Sequence record: OZ035771.1
Origin: Phapecoctavirus DIJ07P2
DNA length: 64,000 bases
Direction: 5' to 3' (one strand)
In this document: positions 1,357-13,799 of the stretch, piece after piece
How positions within the stretch are numbered: position 1 is the first letter of the stretch
Layout: each line of letters begins with the position of its first letter
Position numbers and translations under genes: made by a program
The notes under the pieces: model-generated
Databases searched by the model: none
What the model was told of the DNA's origin: nothing
What the model saw: only the letters and a program-made list of their open reading frames with translations

Positions 1357-1412
1357 TATTTTAACTTTTTTCATTTTTAGAACAAAGGTGTCACTTTGTA
1401 GCACAGAAATAA

Positions 1413-1447
1413 GGCTCCTACAGCACCGTAGAGAGCCTATTATTTTG
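1413..1447 (+). terminator. rho-independent terminator after NADAR gene
   Basis: nested hairpin GGCTC-CTAC..GTAG-GAGCC followed by T-rich tract. Confidence 0.5.
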
Positions 1448-1598
1448 TCCTATACAAACCCTTGTCTTTTTCAGTTTGCATCACTAGGATTCGATCTGAG
1501 TGGGTTCCTGAAGGTCTGCCAATAAGATTAAAGGTTATCTCAAATTCCCACTACCTATTATCTCAAAAATCCCTCAAATTATTTAAACTTTTTAAGAA

Positions 1599-1784
1599 TT
1601 TACAAAAGTGAAAGTTGAAAACCAAAATTTAAAGTTTAGGAAAATTATCTTAAAATGTCAGATACAAAACAAAACTCAAAAGTCAAGGAAAATTTTAAAA
1701 ATTTTGCGCGCCCACAGTATTTAAAGTTTTTTTGCTTTTACAAAAATGAAAGTACAAAAGCAAAATTTAAAGTTTACAAAAATT
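1599..1784. repeat. two ~47-bp AT-rich direct repeats
   Basis: TTACAAAAGTGAAAGTTGAAAACCAAAATTTAAAGTTTAGGAAAATT (1599-1646) vs TTACAAAAATGAAAGTACAAAAGCAAAATTTAAAGTTTACAAAAATT (1737-1784). Confidence 0.55.
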
Positions 1785-1796
1785 TATGCAGATGGG

Positions 1797-1899
1797 AATG
1801 AGAAGAGTTCTCATATGGAAATGCAAATGATAATGATTCGCATTTAGGTTTATAAATGAGATTGATTCTTATTTGATAAGGTAAATGATAATCATTCTC
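1797..1899. promoter_or_regulatory. Fur-box-like operator cluster (two 19-mers plus a palindrome)
   Basis: GCAAATGATAATGATTCGC (1823-1841) and GTAAATGATAATCATTCTC (1881-1899) match GATAATGATAATCATTATC at 14/19 and 16/19; palindrome ATGAGAAgagTTCTCAT at ~1797-1814. Confidence 0.4.
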
Positions 1900-2161
1900 A
1901 TTTAGAGAATGACGCGCAGGGGCGGTGTTTGTCTCGCGCTCCCGTGTCCCCTCGCCATGTAATAAGAATAACAGATCCAGCCAGGAAAGCAAGCGATTAT
2001 TTTATCTTTACATTTCTTTACAAATATATAGCGCCCAGCCTACCGGCGATCAACCTTCCAACCAGCGCCCTGGTATGTTAGCCCCGCCTTTACGCCGTGG
2101 GGGTGGCGCTTCCTCTTCTGTATGTAAAACAGTATAAGCCCGATCCCTGGGCTTGTCAAGA

Positions 2162-2428
2162 TTATTTTTTGTTTTCTTGCCAGGTTAGGACACCTAGCCA
2201 AAAATGAATATCACCTTTTCCCCAATGTGGTATATTGCTTTCTTTCCCACCTTCACGCGCCCAGGTAAAACCGCCCGTGTAACTTTGTAATTGATAACTA
2301 TCCTCGACCTTATAATCTGATAGGTTGAGAACTGTTTCAACCTTTAAGCCCGTTGCGCTTGCTACCTGGTGCACCGTGCCGCCTTGCCAGCCCAATGAGT
2401 GCATAAGGTGTAATGTAGTATTTGTCAT
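2162..2428 (-). CDS. hypothetical protein in GC-rich island
   Basis: 88-aa minus ORF with AAGGG RBS-like sequence; local GC content visibly higher than surroundings. Confidence 0.35.
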   Translation of the reverse strand: MTNTTLHLMHSLGWQGGTVHQVASATGLKVETVLNLSDYKVEDSYQLQSYTGGFTWAREGGKESNIPHWGKGDIHFWLGVLTWQENKK

Positions 2429-2537
2429 GGTGTCGCCCTTTCTTTGTTGTGCGCCCTGGTTGGCGCGGTAGAAAGATGATAGCCCTTTCCTTTATATATA
2501 GCAAGCAAAAAGAAAATAAAAAAGATTGAAAAAGTGA

Positions 2538-2595
2538 TTGACGTTCGCCAGGTGGCGGCATAATATTTACCACGTAGGGCGGCAATGGTGCCGCT
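2538..2595 (+). promoter_or_regulatory. early promoter / 5' hairpin cassette 1
   Basis: -35 TTGACG 2538, 17-nt spacer, -10 TAATAT 2561, CACGTAGGGCGG box, stem GCGGC/GCCGC 2578-2595. Confidence 0.6.
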
Positions 2596-2615
2596 CATTA
2601 TTTGGAATTAAGATC

Positions 2616-2813
2616 ATGGCAACATTGCACATTGTGGCGAAAGCTGGACAAATCAACGTAGTAGTAAACGGTTTTACTGAGTTCAGTCATCCCCAGGATG
2701 ATCATGAAACGGTTTTATCTTTCATTGATTCACTGTTAGAAATGGGAGTCATTACAGAAGACCAGCACGCTACAAAATGCAAACGCGTTAATCAGATTGC
2801 AGGAATAGAATAA
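2616..2813 (+). CDS. hypothetical small protein (65 aa)
   Basis: track ORF 2538..2813 trimmed to ATG 2616 downstream of the cassette. Confidence 0.55.
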   Translation: MATLHIVAKAGQINVVVNGFTEFSHPQDDHETVLSFIDSLLEMGVITEDQHATKCKRVNQIAGIE

Positions 2814-2819
2814 AAAGTA

Positions 2820-2878
2820 TTGACAACAACCAACAACCTGATAAGATGTATCACATAAGGCGGGAAATGGTTTCCCGC
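2820..2878 (+). promoter_or_regulatory. early promoter / 5' hairpin cassette 2
   Basis: -35 TTGACA 2820, -10 TAAGAT 2842, CACATAAGGCGGG box, stem GCGGGA/TCCCGC 2860-2878. Confidence 0.6.
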
Positions 2879-2902
2879 TCACAACAGAAGAGAGAAATCA
2901 TC

Positions 2903-3175
2903 ATGGCATCATATAGCGCAACAATGATCGTAGCTGGTACCACTGGTAAACCTATGAGCGGTGGCGGATCTTTCGCTAATATTAATATTGATGGGCGTTT
3001 ATCCCTGGACGCAGCGATCACCGTGGCGCGGGAAACATTTAAGAAAGAATGTGATTTCAACAAGCAAGATTATTTAGGTTTTGCTATTGAAAAAACGGCG
3101 CGTTTTGTTGATTATAAAAGTCCGAAAATGGTTGATACTACACTAAAAGCGCAAGATGTAGCCTTTTTGCTTTAA
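2903..3175 (+). CDS. hypothetical small protein (90 aa)
   Basis: ATG 2903 after conserved ACAACAGAAGAGAGAAATCATC leader; track ORF 2846..3175 trimmed. Confidence 0.6.
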   Translation: MASYSATMIVAGTTGKPMSGGGSFANINIDGRLSLDAAITVARETFKKECDFNKQDYLGFAIEKTARFVDYKSPKMVDTTLKAQDVAFLL

Positions 3176-3178
3176 GGC

Positions 3179-3233
3179 TTGACATTAACGAATAATTTGT
3201 TAATATGTTACATAAAGCGGGAACTATTCCCGC
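3179..3233 (+). promoter_or_regulatory. early promoter / 5' hairpin cassette 3
   Basis: -35 TTGACA 3179, -10 TAATAT 3201, stem GCGGGA/TCCCGC 3217-3233. Confidence 0.55.
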
Positions 3234-3251
3234 TATTTGTAAGGTGGTAGA

Positions 3252-3509
3252 ATGTTTTACATCAAATTAAAAGGTCACGTGATCGCGTTCAAGGATAACG
3301 CTTTTTACAGATTAGCAAAATATGCGTTAATACATCCCCATTATGTTTATATAAGGGGGCGTGATGAAATAAATATCTTTGATCAAACAACATGCGAGAA
3401 CATCGAGATCCGCAAGGTTGGCGTACGTGACTATCGTACATCTTTCTACCCTTGCAAGGATTCAGCAAGTCTTTTTAAAGTATGCCAATTGTTGAAAAAA
3501 GGTGGTTAA
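3252..3509 (+). CDS. hypothetical protein (85 aa)
   Basis: track ORF; GGTGG RBS. Confidence 0.6.
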   Translation: MFYIKLKGHVIAFKDNAFYRLAKYALIHPHYVYIRGRDEINIFDQTTCENIEIRKVGVRDYRTSFYPCKDSASLFKVCQLLKKGG

Positions 3510-3510
3510 T

Positions 3511-4068
3511 ATGGGCCGCGAATATGTGATCCAGTCTTGGGTAAAACATGAAGCAGATGATCCGCGCATCATTCCTGATTATCTTGTCGATGAATCCACG
3601 GGCTATAGCGGGGAGCAAATAGGTAACAGATTAGCACGTAGTAACGGCAACGTAAAAGCGCGTTATGTGCGCCCTGGCTGGCTGGCAAATGGTAACGCTG
3701 ATTTATCCAGTGCGGAAGATGCGAGCGACGGCGCGAAAGATAATCCTTTGTACAAAGTTGATCCGGCTTTTCGTGTCCTGGATGAATACCCCAGCAAGAT
3801 AGCGGCGCTCGATCAGGCCCTGGAAAGTAAGCGCATCACCTGGACCGCTTACAACATGGCAAAAAACGTACTTGATGGTAAATTGATTCAAGCTGAAAGA
3901 AAATTAGCCAAAATTGCAGCCATAGCCCAGGAGGAAGACGAGGAGACAACGGAAGAGGAAGAGTACGAAGAGATCCCGCCGTTGTTGTGTGTTGATGCTT
4001 TTCCTGATTATCAGCCGACAGAGGAAGAAAAAAGGATCGCACTAGAAAACTTTGAAAATAGTCTTTGA
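3511..4068 (+). CDS. hypothetical protein with acidic C-terminus (185 aa)
   Basis: track ORF 3502..4068 trimmed to ATG 3511 (AAGGTGG 5 nt upstream); C-terminal EEDEETTEEEEYEE. Confidence 0.55.
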   Translation: MGREYVIQSWVKHEADDPRIIPDYLVDESTGYSGEQIGNRLARSNGNVKARYVRPGWLANGNADLSSAEDASDGAKDNPLYKVDPAFRVLDEYPSKIAALDQALESKRITWTAYNMAKNVLDGKLIQAERKLAKIAAIAQEEDEETTEEEEYEEIPPLLCVDAFPDYQPTEEEKRIALENFENSL

Positions 4069-4122
4069 CATATCGCCGCCACTGGCATAATATTTACCAC
4101 GTAGGGCGGCAATGGTGCCGCT
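4065..4122 (+). promoter_or_regulatory. early promoter / 5' hairpin cassette 4
   Basis: -35 TTGACA 4065 overlapping previous stop, -10 TAATAT 4088, stem GCGGC/GCCGC. Confidence 0.6.
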
Positions 4123-4150
4123 CATAGTGAAATTATGCAAGAGGCTTACA

Positions 4151-4246
4151 ATGATTAATAAAGGAAATAGCTTGACGGTTGGAACGATTAACGCTATCAT
4201 TCTCGCCGTTCCATTTTGGGTTGTAGTAGCGGCTATTATTTTCTAA
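4151..4246 (+). CDS. hydrophobic micro-protein (31 aa, single TM helix)
   Basis: ATG 4151 after AGAGG; MINKGNSLTVGTINAIILAVPFWVVVAAIIF; below 60-aa track cutoff. Confidence 0.45.
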   Translation: MINKGNSLTVGTINAIILAVPFWVVVAAIIF

Positions 4247-4255
4247 AAAATATTC

Positions 4256-4316
4256 TTGACAACGTTTTTTAATCTGATAAGATGTATCACATAGGGCGGC
4301 GGAATACTTCCCCGCC
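4256..4316 (+). promoter_or_regulatory. early promoter / 5' hairpin cassette 5
   Basis: -35 TTGACA 4256, -10 TAAGAT 4278, stem GGCGGCGG/CCCCGCC. Confidence 0.6.
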
Positions 4317-4337
4317 AAAACAAAAAAGGGTAACACA

Positions 4338-4700
4338 ATGAGCAAGCAAATCAATACTATCATGTTTAATCTGGTATCTTTCCGCGATGATATGAAAAAT
4401 TTACCACGTGAAACGGTTGATATTCATGTTTCAGCTTATCGCGCCCTTATTGACATGTTACCGCTAAAACGTGATCAACATGCCGCTAATATGATGCTTA
4501 ATGCTATGCTTAAAAAGATGATTCAAACGGATCTCACCCTGGCATATGAGTATCAAGGGCGCTTATATGCAAATTACAACAGAGCGGTACCTGGTCTGGG
4601 AAGTACTGAAGAGTTGCACGGCTTAAACCTGGATCAAAACACTTGGGATAGTATGCGCCGCGTTATGGTATGGGCCGAAAGCGGTAAAATTTACGAATAA
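4338..4700 (+). CDS. hypothetical protein (120 aa)
   Basis: track ORF directly downstream of cassette 5. Confidence 0.6.
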   Translation: MSKQINTIMFNLVSFRDDMKNLPRETVDIHVSAYRALIDMLPLKRDQHAANMMLNAMLKKMIQTDLTLAYEYQGRLYANYNRAVPGLGSTEELHGLNLDQNTWDSMRRVMVWAESGKIYE

Positions 4701-4706
4701 AAACGG

Positions 4707-4763
4707 TTGACACTGTTTTTTATTCTGGTATAGTTTATCACGTAGGGCGGCAATGGTGCCGCC
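4707..4763 (+). promoter_or_regulatory. early promoter / 5' hairpin cassette 6
   Basis: -35 TTGACA 4707, -10 TATAGT 4729, stem GCGGC/GCCGC. Confidence 0.6.
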
Positions 4764-4783
4764 AACAATAAAAGGTTAACATC

Positions 4784-4963
4784 ATGACCATCATTGCAAA
4801 AACTGAGATTATAGGTTTAGATTCGATCCTCCTGGCTTATGAGGAAACTTTAAAAATGTATGTAGTGACCTATGGTGATTATGTGCGTGAATACGAATAC
4901 ATTGATCTTGCTTTCGAATGTTACATTCGCCAGGTCAATAAAGCCTATAACGATTATCGTTAA
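4784..4963 (+). CDS. hypothetical micro-protein (59 aa)
   Basis: ATG 4784 after AAAGG; 60 codons; below track cutoff. Confidence 0.5.
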   Translation: MTIIAKTEIIGLDSILLAYEETLKMYVVTYGDYVREYEYIDLAFECYIRQVNKAYNDYR

Positions 4964-4982
4964 AAGTTTTAGTCTTATACTA

Positions 4983-5034
4983 TTGACAATGAGTGATAGT
5001 ATAAGCATAATAACTTTTATCGGGAATACTTCCC
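4983..5034 (+). promoter_or_regulatory. early promoter / weak hairpin cassette 7
   Basis: -35 TTGACA 4983; short stem GGGAA/TTCCC 5021-5034. Confidence 0.45.
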
Positions 5035-5059
5035 ACTAACCAAAAAAGAGAGTAATATC

Positions 5060-5425
5060 ATGGCTATTAATATCAATGTTTCCTCTTATGCTACCCTGGC
5101 TGACACGGCTAAAATTGAATTATCCAGCATTGAGGCGGTGCATATTAGCGCCCGTCGTTGGTTTCAACAGTCCTACGGTAACACATATTTTTCTTTAATG
5201 GTTGACGTTGAGATCGGCGGTAAACTGATCGAGGTGGTTAACGTTCCGTTTCAATATGGTTATGGTGATCATTTTGATACCGTCGCCCTGGAAGAATTTA
5301 GCAAGGTTATTAATATGGAAGGTAAAGAGTTTTCACGCGGCGCGTATCTTTCCCGTTTTTGCCGTGATAATGGGATCACTGTATACAGTCATGCGAGCGA
5401 TGTTAAACGTAAAAAAGATTTATAA
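5060..5425 (+). CDS. hypothetical protein (121 aa)
   Basis: track ORF; conserved leader and ATG-GCT start. Confidence 0.6.
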   Translation: MAININVSSYATLADTAKIELSSIEAVHISARRWFQQSYGNTYFSLMVDVEIGGKLIEVVNVPFQYGYGDHFDTVALEEFSKVINMEGKEFSRGAYLSRFCRDNGITVYSHASDVKRKKDL

Positions 5426-5431
5426 AAAGCA

Positions 5432-5490
5432 TTGACAGCACGAATAAAAAGAGTAAACTGTATTACATAGAGAGCGGGAACACTTCCCGC
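5432..5490 (+). promoter_or_regulatory. early promoter / 5' hairpin cassette 8
   Basis: -35 TTGACA 5432, -10 TAAACT ~5455, stem GCGGGAA/TTCCCGC. Confidence 0.55.
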
Positions 5491-5515
5491 CTCACTGAAA
5501 AAAGAGATTAACATC

Positions 5516-5755
5516 ATGGCTAAATCAAAAATGTTCTTAGGTCACAAAAATAAAACTCATTGGAATGTAAGCCTTTGGATTAATAACGATGAATCGTTAT
5601 ATCGGTTGGCGAAAGAATTTATCGCCGCTAATACTAATCGTAATGATGCTGCCCGTGATATGATGTTATTCCTGGAACAAACTGGACAAGATAAAACTCC
5701 AGACGGTTTCAAGTATAGCACTACAGCGATCCGCGCCGCGATGGTTGGAATGTAA
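5516..5755 (+). CDS. hypothetical protein (79 aa)
   Basis: track ORF. Confidence 0.6.
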   Translation: MAKSKMFLGHKNKTHWNVSLWINNDESLYRLAKEFIAANTNRNDAARDMMLFLEQTGQDKTPDGFKYSTTAIRAAMVGM

Positions 5756-5768
5756 AGGAGATATAAAA

Positions 5769-5849
5769 ATGAAACATCGTTCTACCTATCTAACAAAACG
5801 TTTTAGCTTAGATCATAAATTGGGCTATTACGGAAGAAATAGAAAATAA
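5769..5849 (+). CDS. possible micro-ORF (26 aa)
   Basis: ATG 5769 with strong AAGGAG 7 nt upstream. Confidence 0.3.
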   Translation: MKHRSTYLTKRFSLDHKLGYYGRNRK

Positions 5850-5850
5850 T

Positions 5851-5910
5851 TTGACAACGTTTAAAATTAGTGTAAGATGTATCACATAGGGCGGGAAGTG
5901 GTTTCCCGCC
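5851..5910 (+). promoter_or_regulatory. early promoter / 5' hairpin cassette 9
   Basis: -35 TTGACA 5851, -10 TAAGAT 5873, stem GCGGGAA/TTCCCGC. Confidence 0.6.
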
Positions 5911-5932
5911 AACAACAGAGAGATTAAAGATT

Positions 5933-6160
5933 ATGGCTATCAATATTGTTCGCGTATCCGGCACCGTTGGCACTTCCCAAGTTATTGCAGTTGTAACAAA
6001 CAAAAAGATTAATGATGTATGTGAAAGCTTGAATAAGTGGGCTATTGTTAATTTTGGGGAATATGCAAGCGTCGAGTACATCGAATCCTACCAGGTGCCA
6101 ACCATCAGCCTAACCGATCTCAACGTTGATCGCTTGTTGTGCCTGGATGAATTAATCTGA
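5933..6160 (+). CDS. hypothetical protein (75 aa)
   Basis: track ORF. Confidence 0.6.
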   Translation: MAINIVRVSGTVGTSQVIAVVTNKKINDVCESLNKWAIVNFGEYASVEYIESYQVPTISLTDLNVDRLLCLDELI

Positions 6161-6170
6161 AAAAAGATTG

Positions 6171-6227
6171 TTGACACCGGAAAGAAAAAGAGTAGAATAT
6201 ATTACATAGGGCGGCAATGGTGCCGCT
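6171..6227 (+). promoter_or_regulatory. early promoter / 5' hairpin cassette 10
   Basis: -35 TTGACA 6171, -10 TAGAAT 6194, stem GCGGC/GCCGC. Confidence 0.6.
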
Positions 6228-6251
6228 CACAACAGAAGAGAGATTATCACG

Positions 6252-6467
6252 ATGGCTAATATCCGCACTTTACTGAAAAATGCAAGTCAAGTTTTATTTT
6301 CAGATGATGAGTATTTCAATAAAGACATTACAGGCGTGAAAAATTTAAAAGACGTGAAGGATGTTATCGGTATTCGTGGATCTTTACGTAAAGGTGACTA
6401 CTATGGTAACAAGGTGCAATATAAACTGTCAAAGGATTACAATTTTACTTTGACAATTATTTCATAA
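6252..6467 (+). CDS. hypothetical protein (71 aa)
   Basis: track ORF. Confidence 0.6.
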   Translation: MANIRTLLKNASQVLFSDDEYFNKDITGVKNLKDVKDVIGIRGSLRKGDYYGNKVQYKLSKDYNFTLTIIS

Positions 6468-6473
6468 AACCGC

Positions 6474-6536
6474 TTGCAATACTGCAAAAATAAAGTAAAC
6501 TGTATTCATCAAGGCGGTGGAATAGCCAACCGCCTA
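6474..6536 (+). promoter_or_regulatory. early promoter / 5' hairpin cassette 11
   Basis: -35 TTGCAA 6474, -10 TAAACT ~6497, stem AGGCGGT/ACCGCCT. Confidence 0.5.
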
Positions 6537-6558
6537 ACAAAGAGAAGAGGAAAACATC

Positions 6559-6726
6559 ATGATCACTTTCGCTACCCGTGAAGCCGCTCGCAACGTTGCA
6601 CGTAAAGTTAACGCCGCCAACCTGGGCGCTACGCTTAAAGCTCCGGTAAAAGATGAATCAGGCAAATGGATCTTCCCTGGTCTGCGTCATGCTGACAAGT
6701 TAGGTACTTTAAGCCTTAAAAAATAA
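6559..6726 (+). CDS. hypothetical basic micro-protein (55 aa)
   Basis: ATG 6559 after AGAGGAAAAC leader; below track cutoff. Confidence 0.5.
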   Translation: MITFATREAARNVARKVNAANLGATLKAPVKDESGKWIFPGLRHADKLGTLSLKK

Positions 6727-6729
6727 TCG

Positions 6730-6766
6730 TTGACTTTTCGTTATAGCGCCTTACAATGGGCGCTAT
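6730..6766 (+). promoter_or_regulatory. early promoter / hairpin cassette 12 (-10 inside the loop)
   Basis: -35 TTGACT 6730, -10 TACAAT 6752 lying in the loop of stem TAGCGCC/GGCGCTA. Confidence 0.45.
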
Positions 6767-6801
6767 AGAGAAGAGAAACCACTACTAACAAGGAAACCAT
6801 T

Positions 6802-7023
6802 ATGATCACTTTCGCTATTGTCGCCGTTGTTGCTGGTCAAGTTTACGTAAATGAGACATTTACTACAGAAGACAAGGCAGCAGGAGATATAACCGCCGTT
6901 TACAATGAGTGCAAGGCAGTAGAAAGGATGTTAGCGCCTTGTATGCTAATGAGTGAACGCCAGGACGGAATAACAGTATTTACTAACATTGGAACAGGGT
7001 ACCAAATGGTAGTAACAAAATAA
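6802..7023 (+). CDS. hypothetical protein (73 aa)
   Basis: track ORF. Confidence 0.55.
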   Translation: MITFAIVAVVAGQVYVNETFTTEDKAAGDITAVYNECKAVERMLAPCMLMSERQDGITVFTNIGTGYQMVVTK

Positions 7024-7026
7024 AGC

Positions 7027-7083
7027 TTGACACCGATTTAATTTTTAGTAAACTGTTACACGTAGGGCGGGAATAGTTCCCGC
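7027..7083 (+). promoter_or_regulatory. early promoter / 5' hairpin cassette 13
   Basis: -35 TTGACA 7027, -10 TAAACT 7049, stem GCGGGA/TCCCGC 7067-7083. Confidence 0.6.
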
Positions 7084-7102
7084 TCAAAAAGAGAGAAAGA
7101 TC

Positions 7103-7456
7103 ATGAAAGCACAAAATGCAATTAAAGAGTACATCCTTGCCGCTATCGGTTTTAATGATTACGGTATTACAACAGAAAAAGAGAAGATCGCGGAATTGAT
7201 GCGCCGTTTTAATTCCGAGTACTGGTACCCTGATAACCAATCACGTTTTAATTATAGTATTGTTAAAGCACTTGCATCATGGTTACAAGGTTTGCCATCA
7301 GATATTAATATCGCTTTCGAATATTGGGAAGTGGATCGCTTGTTAACATCCTGGGGATACATTAAAGAGAATAGCAGCGATGATAAAATCCAACGAGAAA
7401 GGGAAAATTATTGGCTTTATATTGCAGGCGTGATCCTTGCTTGCTCTTATGAATGA
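7103..7456 (+). CDS. hypothetical protein (117 aa)
   Basis: track ORF. Confidence 0.6.
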   Translation: MKAQNAIKEYILAAIGFNDYGITTEKEKIAELMRRFNSEYWYPDNQSRFNYSIVKALASWLQGLPSDINIAFEYWEVDRLLTSWGYIKENSSDDKIQRERENYWLYIAGVILACSYE

Positions 7457-7462
7457 TAAACC

Positions 7463-7516
7463 TTGACAATTTTACAAAACAGTTTAAATTAACAATATAG
7501 CGGCAATGGTGCCGCT
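7463..7516 (+). promoter_or_regulatory. early promoter / 5' hairpin cassette 14
   Basis: -35 TTGACA 7463; stem AGCGGC/GCCGCT 7499-7516. Confidence 0.5.
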
Positions 7517-7535
7517 CATATAAAGAGGAAACAAA

Positions 7536-7682
7536 ATGAATACATCTAATCGCGCAGAAAAAATTCAATCTTCCAAGATCCGCAAGGCCTGGAACGAGGA
7601 AGTGATCCGCAAAGGCGACAAGCGTAATAAAACAAAGCGCGGGAAGAGTGACAAATATAATTGGATGGATTTAGAGGATTAA
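7536..7682 (+). CDS. basic micro-protein (48 aa)
   Basis: ATG 7536 after AAGAGGAAAC; lysine/arginine-rich; below track cutoff. Confidence 0.5.
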   Translation: MNTSNRAEKIQSSKIRKAWNEEVIRKGDKRNKTKRGKSDKYNWMDLED

Positions 7683-7688
7683 CATAAC

Positions 7689-7716
7689 AAGGGCGCACCA
7701 AGCGCCCTTTCTTTTT
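7689..7716 (+). terminator. rho-independent terminator (conserved hairpin type, copy 1)
   Basis: AAGGGCGCACCAAGCGCCCTT followed by TCTTTTT. Confidence 0.6.
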
Positions 7717-7737
7717 ATATGCAGAGGATAAACAAAG

Positions 7738-7923
7738 ATGACTTTAAACGAGCTTAAAACAGCCTACAACGCAACATTAAAAATAGCCGTGCGTTACCGT
7801 GATGCGTATGGTTTTATCGCGCAGGGCGTGATCCTGGGCTTTTCTGACGATGGTTTGATCTATGTTGATGCACATCACAACAAGGTTAAACCTGAAAACG
7901 TCATTAATATAAAATATCTTTAA
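7738..7923 (+). CDS. hypothetical protein (61 aa)
   Basis: track ORF; AGAGGA RBS. Confidence 0.5.
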   Translation: MTLNELKTAYNATLKIAVRYRDAYGFIAQGVILGFSDDGLIYVDAHHNKVKPENVINIKYL

Positions 7924-7929
7924 AAATGG

Positions 7930-7988
7930 TTGACACCATAACCGGACCTGTTAAACTGTATTACATCAGGCGGGGAATAGTTCCCCAC
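7930..7988 (+). promoter_or_regulatory. early promoter / 5' hairpin cassette 15
   Basis: -35 TTGACA 7930, -10 TAAACT 7952, stem GGGG/CCCC. Confidence 0.5.
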
Positions 7989-8008
7989 CATACAAAAAGG
8001 TAAATATT

Positions 8009-8215
8009 ATGATCACCGCAAAACAAGAAAAAATCATTATCGACGTTGCAGCCGTTGCCGCTATCGCTATTATTGGATCTTATTATGATACCCGTTTCCC
8101 GTCGGCTATGCATGAGGTCGCCGCCGTTGCATCAGTTGGCGTACTGTTTTACGTTGGTAAACGCTATTTATCACCAATGATTAACAAGCTGACACCGTGG
8201 AAAAATAAAGGTTGA
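8009..8215 (+). CDS. small membrane protein (68 aa)
   Basis: track ORF; hydrophobic stretches. Confidence 0.55.
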   Translation: MITAKQEKIIIDVAAVAAIAIIGSYYDTRFPSAMHEVAAVASVGVLFYVGKRYLSPMINKLTPWKNKG

Positions 8216-8266
8216 TCCTGTTTTACATTATGTTATAGTTATCGTGTAGGGCGGCAATGGTGCCGC
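8212..8266 (+). promoter_or_regulatory. early promoter / 5' hairpin cassette 16
   Basis: -35 TTGATC 8212, -10 TATAGT 8234, stem GGCGGC/GCCGC. Confidence 0.5.
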
Positions 8267-8286
8267 GCCCCTTTGAGGATGCAATC

Positions 8287-8571
8287 ATGAGTAAAGCTAA
8301 CACCGTGCTAATGTTTTCCCTGATTAATGATCTCGCTTACTTGTCCAACATGACGCAGGAGGGTAACACATTAACGGCAACATTCACCAATAAGCTTGAC
8401 CGAGTGATCATCGTCTCACTGAAAACAGTTAGTAAAGGCTTTTACTTGTTAGCTTATCATTGTATCACTGATACCGATGAGACAAGCCAGGACTATAGCG
8501 CCCCTTTCCCTGAATCAATGGCACGGGAGATCATCGCCGCCGTTGTAAATGATGGTTTGTTTACTGCATAA
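8287..8571 (+). CDS. hypothetical protein (94 aa)
   Basis: track ORF 8257..8571 trimmed to ATG 8287. Confidence 0.55.
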   Translation: MSKANTVLMFSLINDLAYLSNMTQEGNTLTATFTNKLDRVIIVSLKTVSKGFYLLAYHCITDTDETSQDYSAPFPESMAREIIAAVVNDGLFTA

Positions 8572-8589
8572 AATAATTTAGAAAAAGGC

Positions 8590-8646
8590 TTGCAATCATT
8601 TTGAGATAGTGTATATTTAATTCATAGGGCGGCGGGAATAGTTCCC
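8590..8646 (+). promoter_or_regulatory. early promoter / 5' hairpin cassette 17
   Basis: -35 TTGCAA 8590, -10 TATATT 8612, stem GGGAA/TTCCC. Confidence 0.45.
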
Positions 8647-8669
8647 AAAGCAAACGAGAGGATTACACG

Positions 8670-8789
8670 ATGAGCAAGTACACAGTAGAATACACGGTAG
8701 AGAATCCGGCAGTATCCGAAGGTAAAAAGATGACATTTACCATCAGTATAATCGCTTTCGTTGTCACTATCTTATCAATCATCTTATAA
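8670..8789 (+). CDS. hydrophobic micro-protein (39 aa)
   Basis: ATG 8670 after GAGAGG; C-terminal TM segment; below track cutoff. Confidence 0.45.
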   Translation: MSKYTVEYTVENPAVSEGKKMTFTISIIAFVVTILSIIL

Positions 8790-8799
8790 GGTGCACACC

Positions 8800-8961
8800 A
8801 TGAAAACAACAGATATTATCAAAGAGATCGCCCTTGCCGCTGGCGTTGAGATCGAGGAAGTGATCGCGCTCAATCTTACAGAAAACGATCTGCGCAACTA
8901 TGAAGCGGAAAGCGTGAAAGCAAGTGGCGCGGTCCTGGCATATAATCCGGCTAACAAATAG
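8800..8961 (+). CDS. hypothetical micro-protein (53 aa)
   Basis: track ORF 8761..8961 trimmed to ATG 8800. Confidence 0.45.
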   Translation: MKTTDIIKEIALAAGVEIEEVIALNLTENDLRNYEAESVKASGAVLAYNPANK

Positions 8962-8962
8962 T

Positions 8963-9017
8963 TTGACAAGCTGAATCAACCTGATAAGATGTATCACATA
9001 GGGGCGACAAGCGCCCC
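8963..9017 (+). promoter_or_regulatory. early promoter / 5' hairpin cassette 18
   Basis: -35 TTGACA 8963, -10 TAAGAT 8985, stem GGGGCG/CGCCCC. Confidence 0.6.
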
Positions 9018-9038
9018 GCCTAACAGAGAGATAGAATC

Positions 9039-9317
9039 ATGACCATCGCCAAATTATCCGCCGAAGAAATCGAACAAGTGCTAACTACTAACCTGGAACA
9101 ATGGAAACGTGAGGCAGATATACAATCAGCACAATGGCTTAACGAGAAGTTAACACCGGATGATCTGAGTAAGATTATAGATCCTCAATTCTACGAAGAT
9201 ATTCACGACACCGTTTTAAGCGTCGAGGATGTACTTGATAAGCATTATATTGCTACTGATTTGCAGGTTTACGGGCGTAAAAACTTTATTACTATTCACG
9301 ACATTTACAATAACTAA
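9039..9317 (+). CDS. hypothetical protein (92 aa)
   Basis: track ORF. Confidence 0.6.
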   Translation: MTIAKLSAEEIEQVLTTNLEQWKREADIQSAQWLNEKLTPDDLSKIIDPQFYEDIHDTVLSVEDVLDKHYIATDLQVYGRKNFITIHDIYNN

Positions 9318-9325
9318 GGGATAAC

Positions 9326-9454
9326 ATGAATCCGAAAGATATGCAAGCATGGAAAGGGTACGACGATCTAAGCGCCTTGCGCAATAAGTCAAGCCGTAAC
9401 CTTAGACGGTTAGAAGCAAAGAAAAAGAAAAAACAGTTTGACAAGTCCGCTTAA
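9326..9454 (+). CDS. basic micro-protein (42 aa)
   Basis: ATG 9326 after TAAGGGATAAC; end overlaps next promoter; below track cutoff. Confidence 0.4.
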   Translation: MNPKDMQAWKGYDDLSALRNKSSRNLRRLEAKKKKKQFDKSA

Positions 9455-9494
9455 TCTGGTAAAGTGTATCTCGTAGGGCGGCAATGATGCCGCT
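9438..9494 (+). promoter_or_regulatory. early promoter / 5' hairpin cassette 19
   Basis: -35 TTGACA 9438, -10 TAAAGT 9460, stem GGCGGC/GCCGC (loop AATGAT). Confidence 0.55.
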
Positions 9495-9514
9495 CACAAG
9501 AAGAGAGAAAAATC

Positions 9515-9799
9515 ATGAAGATCACAAAAAGCCTAACTAATTATGCAGCACGTCGCGGATTATGCTTAACCGTTGAAAACTCAGGGAAAGAAGACTTTTT
9601 GTGTTTTTGGGAGCTTGAAAATGATTGCGAGTGGATGTTTTCTTATTCTATCTGCGAAGATCAAAACGGTTGTTTGTTAACCTGGCGCGGTAATATCTAT
9701 TTACCGGAAGAAATTAAAGAAGAGTTACCAGGTACGATCATGACAGAGAGACAGCTTAAGGAAGTGATCAATTTTGTAGGGCAAAACATTAAAAAATAA
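9515..9799 (+). CDS. hypothetical protein (94 aa)
   Basis: track ORF. Confidence 0.6.
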   Translation: MKITKSLTNYAARRGLCLTVENSGKEDFLCFWELENDCEWMFSYSICEDQNGCLLTWRGNIYLPEEIKEELPGTIMTERQLKEVINFVGQNIKK

Positions 9800-9800
9800 T

Positions 9801-9862
9801 TTGACAGCACGCAAACAACGTAGTAAAGTTTACCACATAGGGCGGCGGAATGGTCCACCGCT
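9801..9862 (+). promoter_or_regulatory. early promoter / 5' hairpin cassette 20
   Basis: -35 TTGACA 9801; CACATAGGGCGG box; GC stem ~9841-9862. Confidence 0.55.
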
Positions 9863-9884
9863 CACAACAGAAGAGAAACAAATC

Positions 9885-10055
9885 ATGATCCCGACTATGT
9901 TTTATGTATCGCGCAAAGGTCACAATATTTTTTGGTCTGAAGATTTAAATGAAGCCATGACGTTTGCCCGTGATCGTGTTGCTATCGGTGGCGTTAACAT
10001 CACCGTAACCGATGAAAATGGCATTGAATACTATAACGGCGACGATGAAGAGTAA
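9885..10055 (+). CDS. hypothetical micro-protein (56 aa)
   Basis: track ORF 9801..10055 trimmed to ATG 9885. Confidence 0.5.
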   Translation: MIPTMFYVSRKGHNIFWSEDLNEAMTFARDRVAIGGVNITVTDENGIEYYNGDDEE

Positions 10056-10062
10056 TTAATAA

Positions 10063-10082
10063 GGCGGGGAATACTTCCCGCC
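10063..10082 (+). other. orphan GC hairpin of the cassette type, no promoter
   Basis: GGCGGGGAATACTTCCCGCC directly after a stop codon with no -35/-10 upstream. Confidence 0.5.
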
Positions 10083-10121
10083 ACGCAGTGAATTTTCCGT
10101 TTGGGAAGTAAAAAATAAATC

Positions 10122-10182
10122 TTGACGATAATTTGTTATCTGATAGAATGTATTTCGTAGGGCGGGGCAATAAGGCAAGCCC
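10122..10182 (+). promoter_or_regulatory. early promoter / 5' hairpin cassette 21
   Basis: -35 TTGACG 10122, -10 TAGAAT 10144, TCGTAGGGCGG box. Confidence 0.55.
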
Positions 10183-10199
10183 ACAAAGAGGAAAATAAA

Positions 10200-10568
10200 A
10201 TGAGCAAATCAGCAATTAAAGCACTTGAAAAAGCACAAGAAGTGATCGCAACGTCAACCACTGGCGCAAAGGTTAATCTCGTTTGTTATCTGACAGATGA
10301 AACTATCCGTAAAAATTGGCGTAATGCTGATTTACTGGCTTGCTTATTGATTAATAGTGTCGCTAATGCTTTCCAGTGTGAAACAGCCGAGAGCCTGGAG
10401 GAAAACTTGTTTGATAATATGGATCAAGCCATTGAAACCTATATACAATCAAACCTGGATAGCTGGAACAGTAAAACATGGCCCGACAATTTACGCGATA
10501 CAACTGATCAACTGATCCGCCTTGCCCTGATGGTTGAACGCGATAACGTTTACAACAGCACAAAGTAA
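10200..10568 (+). CDS. hypothetical protein (122 aa)
   Basis: track ORF. Confidence 0.6.
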   Translation: MSKSAIKALEKAQEVIATSTTGAKVNLVCYLTDETIRKNWRNADLLACLLINSVANAFQCETAESLEENLFDNMDQAIETYIQSNLDSWNSKTWPDNLRDTTDQLIRLALMVERDNVYNSTK

Positions 10569-10576
10569 GATTATAC

Positions 10577-10598
10577 AAGGGCGCACTAAGCGCCCTTT
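10577..10598 (+). terminator. terminator-like hairpin (conserved type, copy 2)
   Basis: AAGGGCGCACTAAGCGCCCTT; weak T-tract. Confidence 0.4.
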
Positions 10599-10632
10599 AA
10601 CGTAAAGAAATGTAAATAATGCGCTATCCCTA

Positions 10633-10668
10633 TTGACAGGGGATCGGCGTTATATTATATTTAACTTA
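10633..10668 (+). promoter_or_regulatory. sigma70-like promoter without hairpin
   Basis: TTGACA 10633, 17-nt spacer, TATATT. Confidence 0.45.
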
Positions 10669-10706
10669 CTGGCAGCAAACAACGAAACGAAACAAAGGAC
10701 AACATC

Positions 10707-11126
10707 ATGAACATTAAATCAAATAATCCAGCTTACTCCTTCGATAACGCTTTTTGTCACGGTAGCGCCGCCAAAGGCTTCGAAATCGATGGTAAATTGG
10801 TTATCGTGAACGTTGACGGGGAAGAGGTTGCAGTGTATCCGGTAAACGATGTTAAAAGCCGTTTACAATGCCGCATGGATGTTACCGCATATCAGCTTGA
10901 TCCGGTCCGTGTAGTTGCCCTGGTATTAGAGGAAGAGATCAAAGCAATGCATCACAGTAATAAGTTTATTGGTGACGCGCAGGATAATATGAACGTTTGC
11001 CGCCATAAAGTTAATGAAGCATTGAAAGAATGCGGTTTTAAGGATCTGATGATTAAACGTGATGAAAAATTCCGCTTTCGTAATGACCTGGCAAACCGGA
11101 TCTACTCAATCTATGAAGCTTTATAA
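10707..11126 (+). CDS. hypothetical protein (139 aa)
   Basis: track ORF. Confidence 0.6.
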   Translation: MNIKSNNPAYSFDNAFCHGSAAKGFEIDGKLVIVNVDGEEVAVYPVNDVKSRLQCRMDVTAYQLDPVRVVALVLEEEIKAMHHSNKFIGDAQDNMNVCRHKVNEALKECGFKDLMIKRDEKFRFRNDLANRIYSIYEAL

Positions 11127-11139
11127 TCGACAACAAAAC

Positions 11140-11169
11140 AAGGGGCGCACAAAGCGCCCTTTCTTTTTG
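11140..11169 (+). terminator. rho-independent terminator (conserved type, copy 3)
   Basis: AAGGGGCGCACAAAGCGCCCTT followed by TCTTTTTG. Confidence 0.6.
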
Positions 11170-11199
11170 CCCGAACAATGTTGATAGCTTTCGCCTATG

Positions 11200-11680
11200 A
11201 AAAACCGACACAGAACAAAACTGAATAAATCGCGGTATCGAGCTAATCAACCAGCAAACGAATAACCATACCTCCCAGGGTTACAGGCTGTTAGAGAGCC
11301 ATTTAGAGCGGTTAAAATCGATCAACAACCAACAACAAACCATCAAAAACACCCTTTTACCTCCTTTCTAGTGCAATGATAACCATTATCATCTACCCAT
11401 GATTATCTATGCAATATAAGCGCATAATTATAATGTTGATAATAGTTCGCAACAACTAACCAACAAACAACATAAAACAATAAGCAAACTAATCATAATC
11501 AAAGGAATAATAGCAAGATGATTGATAACGACAAACAATCGAACCATGATGAATACTAAGCAAGATAACGATAACACGACAAAACAACCAACTAACGAAC
11601 AATAACAAACGAAACCATTAAAATAATAACTATTAGCAAAATAGTGCCTGAATGAAATCATTACAAAACGAATCATTCAC
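11200..11680. repeat. A+C-rich, strand-asymmetric low-complexity tract
   Basis: plus strand dominated by CAA/ACA/AAC repeats with very few G; no credible ORF. Confidence 0.5.
11372..11390. promoter_or_regulatory. Fur-box-like 19-mer
   Basis: TGCAATGATAACCATTATC; 3' 15 nt match Fur consensus at 14/15. Confidence 0.35.
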
Positions 11681-11699
11681 AGAGTCATCATTAGCACGC

Positions 11700-12060
11700 T
11701 ATGCCGGACACATAGCGAGCTAATAATAAGCCAACTACACCCCAACAATCATAACCATCGGTGACGGTTATTTCTTGTTACTGCGTAGCTTGCAATAATT
11801 GCAAGCGTAATGACGCTTACACTTATTGCGCTGGCTTATTATTAGCATTATATGTAATTACCAAGATCATAACATTAGCGCAATAACAATAGTCATTGTA
11901 ATAATTACATGAGTTATCACTATCGTTCAGTGTGATCATCATTAGCACAGTGAATAATTGCACGTAGCAACATGAGCGAATAGCGACAGGTTGCATAGTG
12001 TGCACATAGTGTATAAACATACAAGAAAATAAAGGCTAATCTTTTGGGGGCGAATACTAT
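11700..12060. repeat. cluster of palindromes and inverted repeats
   Basis: GCTAATAATAAGCC (11718) / GGCTTATTATTAGC (11838); CTTGCAAT-A-ATTGCAAG; AGCGT-AATG-ACGCT; ACAAT-AGTC-ATTGT; ATAGTGT direct repeat. Confidence 0.5.
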
Positions 12061-12150
12061 CGCGTAGCGATATGTTGAGCACCTTCTCTTAAACGTAAAT
12101 AAAATCAGAAAATTCTTGATTTATTTTAGTTTTTATGTTAATAAACGTTT

Positions 12151-12169
12151 AAATAATAATCATTCTCAT
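12151..12169. promoter_or_regulatory. Fur-box-like 19-mer
   Basis: AAATAATAATCATTCTCAT, 14/19 to Fur consensus. Confidence 0.3.
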
Positions 12170-12328
12170 ATAAATAATAGTCTGCTTGTCATGAGCGGGA
12201 TTAGTTGACAATGTTCCGTCATATGATGAAGTTGCCAAGCCATTGATAAATAAGTGTTTGTGTGATTTATAATCAGGTGGCCCACCTTGTCGCTATGTTG
12301 GCATGAGCCTTGCATAAGTCATTGAATA

Positions 12329-12350
12329 CGAATGATAATTATTCTCATTC
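12329..12350. promoter_or_regulatory. Fur-box-like palindrome
   Basis: CGAATGATAATTATTCTCATTC, near-perfect palindrome, 14/19 to Fur consensus. Confidence 0.35.
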
Positions 12351-12690
12351 GCATGATATTTGGGAATTGTCGCTGCGTGGACCTGACGGCCCGAAAATTC
12401 GCGTTAAGCACTTCTTACGTATACGCCATGATTTTTGCCATATGATATTGATTCTATTAGATATTCTTGCCATTATTGCCATGAAACATGGTGTCCCGAA
12501 ATAATCTCTCCCCGTAGATATTTTGGGTTACTTTTTATACAAGAGTGGGGTGTCAAAAATAATCAGTATATATGGGATAATTGATAGGAATCCCCTATGA
12601 TAATTCGATTGTAATTCCCTAAGATTGATCGTATGATGTTGGTGATTGATGATTGCCATGAAAGATGGCTAACGATGAGAGGAGATTGTC

Positions 12691-13065
12691 ATGCAAGAGA
12701 GTAAAAATGTTCCGTTGAGTAGTGCAACATTGCTTCGCTTCTATAAAGCATGGATTGCCAACTATCCTGCAATGAATCGCACAACGAGTGGCTTATGTGG
12801 TTGTCTGGTAGATTATGTAAATGATTTTGTTGGTGAGACAACTAGAGAAGAAGATAGAAGATGGCGGGATAGTTTGTTGGACCGTTTGAAATATGAAATG
12901 AGGAAACAATTTACATGTGCAGGGCTGGACTATAATCTTCCGTTCAATGCAGATTGCATGGATTACCTTTCAGAGTGTATAAACTTGGCGTGTCATACCA
13001 ACACGTTACGTCTTCAGTGGGTGAAAGACAGAATTGAAGATGCAAATAATGCTTGCATTGAATAA
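12691..13065 (+). CDS. hypothetical protein, paralog family A
   Basis: motifs GLCGCL and LRLQWVKDRIEDA shared with 13796, 16543 and 17800 genes. Confidence 0.55.
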   Translation: MQESKNVPLSSATLLRFYKAWIANYPAMNRTTSGLCGCLVDYVNDFVGETTREEDRRWRDSLLDRLKYEMRKQFTCAGLDYNLPFNADCMDYLSECINLACHTNTLRLQWVKDRIEDANNACIE

Positions 13066-13550: not shown

Positions 13551-13799
13551 TTGTGTGCAATGATCACACCACAACAGAATGAAGCAGCAATGGATCTTCT
13601 TGATAGTTTGTATTTCGATAATTGGTACTCTGAATGTGAATGGATGAATATGCAAACTCTGAAAGAGAAGACAAAAGCGTTGATTACAGTAGATCAATTT
13701 CTTGCAGAGACGGAAAGAATGAATTATGATATGGCATCTCGCGCACGACGCGTTTCCATTTTCAATAAAATGTTAGCATTATGGGGAGGTAGAAAATGA
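13551..13799 (+). CDS. hypothetical protein (82 aa)
   Basis: track ORF. Confidence 0.5.
   Translation: MCAMITPQQNEAAMDLLDSLYFDNWYSECEWMNMQTLKEKTKALITVDQFLAETERMNYDMASRARRVSIFNKMLALWGGRK

Follow-up and report, generated by a model that had tools for sequence, protein, structure and literature searches.

Two non-coding regions of Phapecoctavirus DIJ07P2 carry a set of non-random Fur-box-like sites which equal or exceed the Fur operators of Escherichia coli when scored with a matrix trained on host sites. The stretch of 64,000 nucleotides which was analyzed (sequence record OZ035771.1; hereafter the window) contains two gene deserts of together 2.8 kb (desert 1 and desert 2, see Table 1), the remainder of the window amounting to about 61 kb. 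The boxes are the most conserved sequences of the non-coding control regions and of the terminal repeat, and they are common to distinct families of virulent phages. The best overall explanation, to which we assign a probability of about 0.55, is that they are operators for the host Fe2+-Fur protein, the occupancy of which would follow host iron and would gate transcription in the control regions.

Fur-box-like sites in the two deserts

The window was scored with two consensus forms, the 19-bp classical Fur box GATAATGATAATCATTATC and the 7-1-7 motif TGATAATnATTATCA. An earlier inspection of this DNA (the sequence-only reading) had listed five Fur-box-like sites. All five are present in the sequence, matching the classical box at 14 to 16 of 19 positions and the 7-1-7 form at 12 to 13 of 14, with the sole correction that the coordinates of site 4 are 12149–12167 rather than 12151–12169, an offset of 2 nt. 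It had also been claimed that such sites are confined to non-coding DNA. This holds at stricter thresholds but not at 14 or more of 19 positions, where five matches are found in coding DNA (4946, 5929, 20266, 24519, and 48131) and desert 2 contributes one match beyond the five sites (11834). Several members of the set had been missed, namely the units at 1795–1817 and 1853–1875 and the weaker boxes at 11619, 11834, and 11933.

At 13 or more of the 14 positions of the 7-1-7 motif, three sites occur in the deserts and none elsewhere in the window. At 12 or more, there are six sites in the 2.8 kb of desert versus two in the remaining 61 kb; dinucleotide shuffles of the deserts yielded a mean of 0.03 sites at this threshold, and none of 300 shuffles reached six. 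A palindromic matrix of 19 columns was refined from the intergenic regions of ten Fur-regulated promoters of strain K-12 (fepA-fes, fepD-entS, fepB-entC, fhuA, cirA, fiu, fecI, ryhB, tonB, and exbB). The scan with this matrix and the comparison with simulated and shuffled deserts, which the sequence-only reading had proposed as a check, place the sites far above chance. The seven best matches in the 64 kb all lie within the deserts, the top five being the previously listed sites, and at 15 bits or more the count is seven in the deserts and zero in the other 61 kb. First-order Markov simulation of the deserts predicts 0.2 matches with a cutoff of 14 bits and 0.013 with one of 16.5 bits, the latter to be compared with five observed. 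The GC content of the deserts (37.6%) is close to that of the rest of the window (38.6%), so that AT-richness is not the cause of the boxes. These are genuine, non-random Fur-box-like sites, far beyond chance expectation.

The five sites score 22.0, 18.2, 17.3, 16.8, and 16.7 bits, compared to 11.2–20.9 bits for the host training sites (9.2–17.7 bits when each of these is left out of training). Site 2, the strongest box in the window, exceeds every host training site. With a 32-nt query around site 2, its exact 19-mer TGATAATCATTCTCATTTA was found in about 950 complete E. coli genomes, where it is the Fur box located 45 bp upstream of mntH, adjoining the MntR box AAACATAGCAAAGGCTATGTTT. A box nearly identical to site 2 precedes sitA, and the two host boxes score 17.8 (mntH) and 23.7 bits (sitA). 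Fur and MntR act as repressors of both mntH and sitABCD. The sequence ATAATAATCATTCTC of site 4 also occurs in the operators of fhuA and ryhB. In addition, 12 host sites were compared with 24 distinct phage boxes at positions which had not been used for site selection. Host and phage boxes agree in having AA at −9/−8 (TT at +8/+9) and C/G at the center, and in each of the two sets the core position carrying the least information is position 4 on either side of the center, occupied by T or alternatively by G.

The likeness to the mntH, sitA, fhuA, and ryhB operators thus concerns the 7-1-7 or hexamer-array sequence itself. The phage sites differ from these in that they reside on a virulent phage and do not precede iron or manganese genes, in that Fur binding is predicted, in that several lack a recognizable promoter, and in their arrangement, some forming a tandem array with 29-bp spacing and others lying within a terminal repeat.

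Placement and conservation of the boxes

Both deserts match other Phapecoctavirus genomes (phAPEC8-like E. coli myophages of the Stephanstirmvirinae), with up to about 99% identity for desert 1 (query 1300–2600; SKA64 and iGC_PHA_EC001) and a best full-length identity of about 97.6% for desert 2 (query 11100–12700; nieznany). An open reading frame annotated across desert 1 in phAPEC8 is frameshifted in Schickermooser, and we thus treat this region as non-coding.

Desert 1 contains four palindromic units (units 0 to 3) with an exact spacing of 29 bp, starting at 1797, 1826, 1855, and 1884. The Schickermooser orthologue of unit 2 scores 18.6 bits. Unit 3 is followed on its right by element A, a double CTTTACA repeat, element B, and the predicted promoter P_B', in this order. 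The module is common to rV5-like Vequintavirus, Seunavirus (PVP-SE1, a Cronobacter phage), Henunavirus (Erwinia), Av-05, and Klebsiella phages, and element A is 84–95% conserved in the rV5-like, Seunavirus, Henunavirus, and Klebsiella phages. In an alignment of ten genomes from Vequintavirinae and Stephanstirmvirinae, which has a mean column identity of 60%, no other nearly invariant stretch is as long as that formed by the box and its flanks (CATTCnnnAAAnGAGAATGATTnTCATTnA, minus strand).

A leftward sigma-70-like promoter is predicted at a place comparable to that of P_B' in all ten genomes; in those in which element B is recognizable, it precedes this element by about 48 nt. In seven of the ten, a second leftward promoter is predicted about 90 nt upstream of the box, at one common position of the alignment; the promoter scan detected none at the place of P_A' in FFH2 or Av-05, and P_A' of DIJ07P2 itself sits about 30 nt further upstream than the aligned promoter of the relatives. 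From genus to genus, these leftward promoters vary in sequence but retain their promoter features. As they occur at comparable places in the relatives, two conserved leftward transcripts would run toward the box array. In the relatives, the box of site 2 also fills the spacer of a rightward promoter-like element, TTGAAT-18 nt-(C/T)AGAAT. The GAGAAT element falls below the threshold of the promoter scan except in Av-05 (TTGAAT-18-TAGAAT). A box in the spacer between −35 and −10 is the classical geometry of Fur repression.

For element B, RNAalifold predicts 18 pairs, two of which show compensatory changes, and this weakly supports a conserved structure. Searching both deserts against Rfam 15 at a permissive threshold returned chance-level matches (E > 0.5, far below gathering scores). 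Elements A and B, each of which has a conserved leftward sigma-70 promoter upstream, are probably small non-coding RNAs; alternatively, they may belong to a transcription module of the origin type that faces the AT-rich repeats at 1575–1790. The latter region, directly to the left of the array, contains a 72-nt direct repeat, the two copies of which lie 138 nt apart and are 82% identical, together with 29-nt sub-repeats, and is reminiscent of iterons or of a DNA-unwinding element.

The physical ends of the genome are located in desert 2. The Schickermooser record (MK373788) begins and ends with the same 329 nt, both copies mapping to 12078–12406 of the window; a terminal repeat of 328 bp has been reported for this phage (Korf et al., 2019; PMC6563267), and the records of many relatives start or end in the same region. 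Boxes 4 and 5 lie inside this 329-bp direct terminal repeat, about 72 bp from its left and about 55–60 bp from its right end. In the divergent clade comprising phiWec179, phiWec188, and PsgM04F, the terminal-repeat region shows only about 69% BLAST identity to the window. Box 4 (AATAATAATCATTCTCAT) is nevertheless invariant in this clade, and box 5 has an extra in-register GATAAT, resulting in GATAATGATAATTATTCTC (17/19, 23.5 bits). As judged from this comparison, boxes 4 and 5 are conserved islands (phylogenetic footprints) in diverged flanks, and the hexamer gain is the variation to be expected of a hexamer-array Fur site. In DIJ07P2, site 5 already contains at least three in-register hexamers of the NAT(A/T)AT type, and its near-palindrome (12328–12352) matches the classical box at 14–15 of 19 positions in two registers. 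Site 3 is also identical in the divergent clade, which is uninformative on the box itself because the whole of 11127–11900 is about 95% conserved there.

Candidate promoters for the terminal-repeat boxes, such as TTGCAT-18-GATAAT in DIJ07P2, were dropped, as the divergent clade does not conserve them.

The region 11127–11900, just inside the right genome end, is CA-rich and strand-asymmetric (AT skew +0.23, GC skew −0.15), lacks a convincing open reading frame, and has CAAC-type repeats at 128-bp spacing (11333, 11461, and 11589). Its conservation of about 95% in the divergent clade, where the adjoining terminal repeat has about 69% identity, marks it as a strongly constrained non-coding element. 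At the boundaries of the terminal repeat (12040–12095 and 12385–12410), the blocks ATGTTGAGCACnTTCTCTTAAACGTAAATAAAATCAGAA (left) and AAAATTCGCGTTAAGCA (right) are kept in the divergent clade; these are probably recognition or cutting sites of the terminase.

Table 1. Positions in the window of the two deserts, the boxes, and the associated elements and predicted promoters
Feature	Position	Strand	Sequence or type	Scores and remarks
Desert 1	1357–2620			holds one small gene (minus strand, 2165–2428)
Unit 0	1795–1817		7-3-7 palindrome ATGAGAA-GAG-TTCTCAT	10.6 bits; spacing wrong for Fur 7-1-7
Site 1 (unit 1)	1823–1847 (19-mer 1823–1841)		AAATGATAATGATTCGCATTT	14/19, 12/14, 17.3 bits
Unit 2	1853–1875		AAATGAGATTGATTCTTATTT	10.2 bits; degenerate here; inverted repeat with unit 3
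Site 2 (unit 3)	1881–1905 (19-mer 1881–1899)		AAATGATAATCATTCTCATTT	16/19, 13/14, 22.0 bits
GAGAAT	1905–1910	+	−10-like hexamer or further Fur hexamer	directly after unit 3
Element A	1917–1958		GC-rich, conserved	between box array and leftward promoter
P_A' (predicted)	1996–2023	−	sigma-70-like, TTGTAA-16-AATAAT	overlaps double CTTTACA repeat (2006–2024)
Element B	2040–2121	−	GC-rich, conserved	probable small leftward transcript
P_B' (predicted)	2131–2159	−	strong sigma-70 promoter, TTGACA-17-TATACT	11/12
Desert 2	11127–12690			non-coding
Site 3	11372–11396 (19-mer 11372–11390)		TGCAATGATAACCATTATCATC	15/19, 13/14, 16.8 bits
Weaker Fur-like box	11619–11637			15.3 bits; 17.0 bits in Schickermooser
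Weaker Fur-like box	11834–11852			14/19, 15.1 bits
Site 4	12149–12169 (19-mer 12149–12167)		AATAATAATCATTCTCAT	14/19, 16.7 bits
Site 5	12323–12352		hexamer array TTGAAT-ACGAAT-GATAAT-T-ATTCTC-ATTCG	13/14, 18.2 bits

The boxes have counterparts in T5-like phages. A stretch of 55 nt (1819–1873 of the window) matches many T5-like genomes at 82–85% identity, in the untranslated part of their left terminal repeat. Phage Spc35 carries the exact 21-mer AAATGATAATCATTCTCATTT of site 2, and its box cluster (17–20 bits) is located just to the right of paired DnaA boxes. In the T5 genome (AY587007.1), units resembling AAATGAGAATCATTATCATTT are the annotated direct repeat C (copies 1–4) and palindromes E–I at 9468–9637, in repeat region 3 of the left terminal repeat, the candidate region of the injection stop, with matrix scores of 19.3 bits (9580–9598), 18.5 bits (9615–9633), and 13.3 bits (9476–9494). 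Major nick 1 (7.9%) is placed at 9661–9668 in the T5 record. The calculated shear point of first-step transfer is at about 9618 (Davison, bioRxiv 10.1101/866236); the same author considered the function of the repeats impossible to guess, in a text which mentions neither Fur nor iron.

T5 and DIJ07P2 have in common that the repeat units are found in untranslated DNA of a terminal repeat or control desert. The settings differ, as T5 has about five or six units beside paired DnaA boxes and a 10-kb repeat involved in two-step injection, whereas DIJ07P2 has a 329-bp repeat, no DnaA boxes in the deserts, and no known two-step transfer. A location of the T5 type applies to boxes 4 and 5, boxes 1–3 being outside the repeat. 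The DnaA box sequence TTWTNCACA, found in T5 as pairs in the IRD'-spacer-IRC' element, occurs in neither desert, its ten matches in the window all being located elsewhere.

Fur boxes are not the sole cis-elements shared by these unrelated phages. About 24 nt including the double CTTTACA repeat (tctttacatttctttacaaatata; window 2005–2028) are identical in Spc35 (4767–4794, region 1 of the left terminal repeat), and the short GC-rich early-promoter motifs gtagggcggcaatg and ccaggtggcggca are common to DIJ07P2 and the T5-like phage. In two unrelated viral contigs of IMG/VR (L034 at 13560–13660 and L091 at about 5170–5260), non-coding DNA contains perfect AAATGAGAATCATTCTCATTT palindromes as tandem pairs or triplets, and Fur-box arrays may thus occur in more phage lineages than those studied. 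A scan of IMG/VR for a pattern of box plus −10 element was given up, as it returned mostly chance matches in unrelated contigs, and the open reading frames around the triple boxes of L091 were uninformative.

Ligand and possible role

A search with E. coli Fur (tblastn) against 50,697 phage records did not reveal a Fur homologue in Phapecoctavirus, Vequintavirinae, or Tequintavirus. There were matches in 31 phage records, many of which are short unannotated fragments and possibly host contamination. When the 16 annotated proteins from the first 11 kb of Spc35, which include A1 and A2, the proteins required for two-step DNA transfer in T5, were compared with the window, no match was below E = 0.08, and no homologues of A1 or A2 were found. 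Pfam and PHROG scans of 66 window proteins detected the large and small subunits of a class I ribonucleotide reductase, and the families listed (25 of 37 for Pfam, 25 of 98 for PHROG) included neither a member of the Fur family nor an obvious regulator. The genes neighboring the small gene of desert 1 have no Pfam family, and their PHROG matches are solely to families of unknown function. The 88-aa gene inside desert 1 (phrog_19316) was found in 151 records, mainly from Stephanstirmvirinae and a few other phages, with no T5-like or rV5-like phage among the matches listed. A query comprising the box array of site 2 and element A matched 404 records. ArgR, TyrR, Zur, and MntR, host regulators which likewise have AT-rich palindromic sites, were set aside as ligands, the spacing of their half-sites being a different one.

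The sequence-only reading had left open whether the boxes serve host Fur or a phage regulator of similar specificity. That they are Fur-box-like, non-random, and score at or above the level of host operators is borne out by the analysis, and between the two ligands the sequence comparisons favor host Fur, because no Fur homologue was found in these phage groups, no shared candidate protein was found across the lineages, and host and phage boxes agree at unselected positions. Host Fur would be the simplest ligand, the alternative being a phage protein encoded outside the 64 kb. We predict with high confidence that Fur binds these sites in vitro, and it is also probable, with somewhat more reserve, that Fur is the ligand on which selection acts in vivo. 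That gating of transcription is the main role is a more tentative proposal, which may well prove incorrect.

According to this proposal, Fe2+-Fur dimers would bind to the four-unit array (1795–1905), to the box at 11372–11390 and its weaker neighbors, and to the two terminal-repeat boxes. Since packaged DNA has two copies of the repeat, the latter boxes occur twice, each copy within about 55–75 bp of an end. Fur occupancy would track the iron status of the host and thereby gate transcription in the control regions. At site 2, where the box fills the spacer of the weak rightward promoter-like element, bound Fur would shut the rightward start. Site 2 is also located roughly 90–110 bp downstream of the predicted leftward sigma-70 promoters, so that bound Fur could act as a roadblock to the two leftward transcripts. 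Scarcity of iron would then release both the rightward start and the leftward transcripts. As a side effect, every replicated genome would add at least five strong Fur sites and would be expected to drain the Fur pool late in infection. The small subunit of class I ribonucleotide reductase typically has a di-iron cofactor. As the phage encodes such a reductase with its small subunit, there is a plausible reason for it to track iron.

Several points weigh against Fur-dependent gating. Conserved promoters could be assigned neither to the terminal-repeat boxes nor, upon inspection by eye, to the T5 cluster, and promoter control thus fails to account for all of the sites. The rightward promoter at site 2 matches the consensus poorly, having GTAAAT as its −35 element in DIJ07P2, and its nAGAAT may equally be another Fur hexamer; we therefore treat it as putative. 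Since the classical consensus used in the sequence-only reading also served as the seed of the matrix, this evidence is not fully independent and partly circular. The scan covered 64 kb of a genome of roughly 150 kb. A literature search on Fur and these phages turned up nothing relevant, and no binding or expression data. Finally, there is no evident reason for a virulent phage to couple its control regions to iron.

Four other explanations were considered. The boxes could bind Fur and yet be selected as a decoy, with hundreds of genome copies, each with at least five strong sites, titrating Fur and switching on the host iron-starvation regulon (iron uptake, RyhB, and the Mn-dependent reductase NrdHIEF) for the benefit of phage nucleotide synthesis. 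Clustered, tandem, and unusually strong sites, many of them without a recognizable promoter, would suit this purpose, as would their duplication by the terminal repeat and the class I reductase encoded by the phage. Fur boxes on multicopy plasmids do titrate Fur, which is the basis of the FURTA assay, and a cell contains about 5,000–10,000 Fur molecules, so that several hundred genomes would be stoichiometrically relevant. A high number of strong boxes per cell derepresses the Fur regulon, and a replicating phage would create this very situation, but FURTA is a laboratory artefact of plasmids, unlike the putative natural use by a phage. Titration leaves unexplained the exact and deeply conserved placement of the boxes relative to promoters and element A as well as the fixed 29-bp spacing, and in a short lytic cycle late derepression may come too late. 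We thus consider it unlikely that titration is the selected role. It is rather improbable, too, that the boxes serve as operators of some DNA-binding protein which the phage itself encodes and which is unrelated to Fur, their resemblance to Fur boxes being coincidence or mimicry. Such a protein could be hidden among the early proteins, most of which have no known function, or in the part of the approximately 150 kb beyond the 64 kb covered, and the phage consensus AAATGAGAATnATTCTCATTT is more uniform and longer than typical host boxes. However, the motif occurs in T5-like siphoviruses as well as in rV5/phAPEC8-like myoviruses, between which the comparison of Spc35 early proteins with the window gave nothing better than E = 0.08, and the distribution of the desert 1 gene (151 records, with T5- and rV5-like phages absent from the matches listed) falls short of the 404 records matched by the site-2 query. 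The agreement with the host motif at unselected positions and the identity to the mntH operator also argue against an unrelated protein, as does box 4, which is a poor palindrome and yet invariant.

A function of the boxes as cis-elements of the genome ends (packaging, end protection, DNA entry or pausing) rather than as transcriptional operators would agree with the position of boxes 4 and 5 inside the terminal repeat, about 72 and 55–60 bp from the physical ends, and with that of the T5 units (9468–9637) in the long terminal repeat, where the shear point (about 9618) and nick 1 (9661–9668) map. Sites 1–3 are outside the repeat, though, by about 10 kb (sites 1 and 2) and 0.7 kb (site 3), and the copies in rV5-like phages, Seunavirus, and Henunavirus belong to an internal promoter module. 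Moreover, the DnaA boxes which accompany the T5 cluster are absent from the deserts, and it is other sequences that form the conserved blocks at the boundaries of the repeat. We regard this explanation as quite improbable. Hardly any weight is given to chance matches in AT-rich DNA, or to RNA or DNA hairpins (terminators, cruciforms) which have no sequence-specific protein ligand. In their favor, the units are palindromic with AAA and TTT flanks, and box 5 folds at −6.3 kcal/mol (z = −2.9). Across the five boxes, however, predicted energies range from 0 to −6.3 kcal/mol; three of the five, including boxes 1 and 2, fold no better than their shuffles, and box 4 (0 kcal/mol) is unfolded yet invariant across clades. 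It is the sequence which is conserved and not the pairing, and the hairpins are too weak, so that identity as a hairpin or terminator was rejected. Chance is likewise contradicted by the shuffles, none of 300 reaching the observed count, by the matrix and conservation results, and by the lack of AT enrichment in the deserts.

Fur operators as such are a known element type, familiar from bacterial iron genes. A case known from phages is the Fur-repressed stx1 promoter on temperate Shiga-toxin prophages, where a phage-borne Fur box likewise ties transcription to host iron. There, a single box controls a cargo toxin gene of a temperate phage, while DIJ07P2, a virulent phage, has multiple conserved boxes in core non-coding regions and at the genome ends. 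What appears to be new is the presence in virulent phages of a conserved array of candidate Fur boxes, located in non-coding regions and in terminal repeats, and the identity of this array with the T5 repeats; a literature search found neither Fur arrays in virulent phages nor an equation of the T5 repeats with Fur boxes. If Fur does bind, these phages would read or manipulate the iron status of the host, and this would matter for infections in the gut, where iron is scarce, and for the therapeutic use of rV5-, phAPEC8-, and T5-like phages.

A wider idea is that strong Fur operators are a cis-element shared by the unrelated T5-like, rV5-like, and phAPEC8-like phages, virulent phages of enterobacteria, at their genome ends and earliest control regions, where they recruit Fur, in which case repeat C and palindromes E–I of T5, at the 7.9% boundary of first-step transfer, would be Fur sites. 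This is speculative, and we think it improbable in its full extent. If true, host Fur would become a candidate host factor of the T5 injection pause in vivo, or a deliberate titration target, by which the iron metabolism of the host would be rewired. Reading the boxes as Fur sites would offer a concrete and cheap test for the repeats at the T5 injection stop.

Neighboring genes and database records

Early-promoter modules are found at 2538–2598 and 2820–2885, each consisting of a sigma-70 promoter (TTGACG-17-TAATAT, TTGACA-16-TAAGAT) followed by a GC stem-loop. The module recurs across the block of small genes at 2.6–11 kb, and the phAPEC8 annotation refers to these as PHIRE promoters.

The gene directly to the left of desert 1 (814–1356) codes for a NADAR-domain protein, which is annotated as GTP cyclohydrolase II in some records. 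On the minus strand, the region from about 23 to 60 kb of the window codes for the large and small subunits of class I ribonucleotide reductase, ThyX, PhoH, Sir2, RdgC, DNA ligase, and enzymes of the dTDP-rhamnose pathway.

Three of the matching records (MG065650, OR584014, and OP562383) are labeled as Campylobacter, Pseudomonas, and Acinetobacter phages, although they are Phapecoctavirus genomes. MG065650 and OP562383 are about 94–97% identical to the window over the compared regions, while OR584014 (PsgM04F), with only about 70% identity across the terminal repeat, falls into the phiWec clade. Probably, either these records have wrong host labels or the samples were contaminated.

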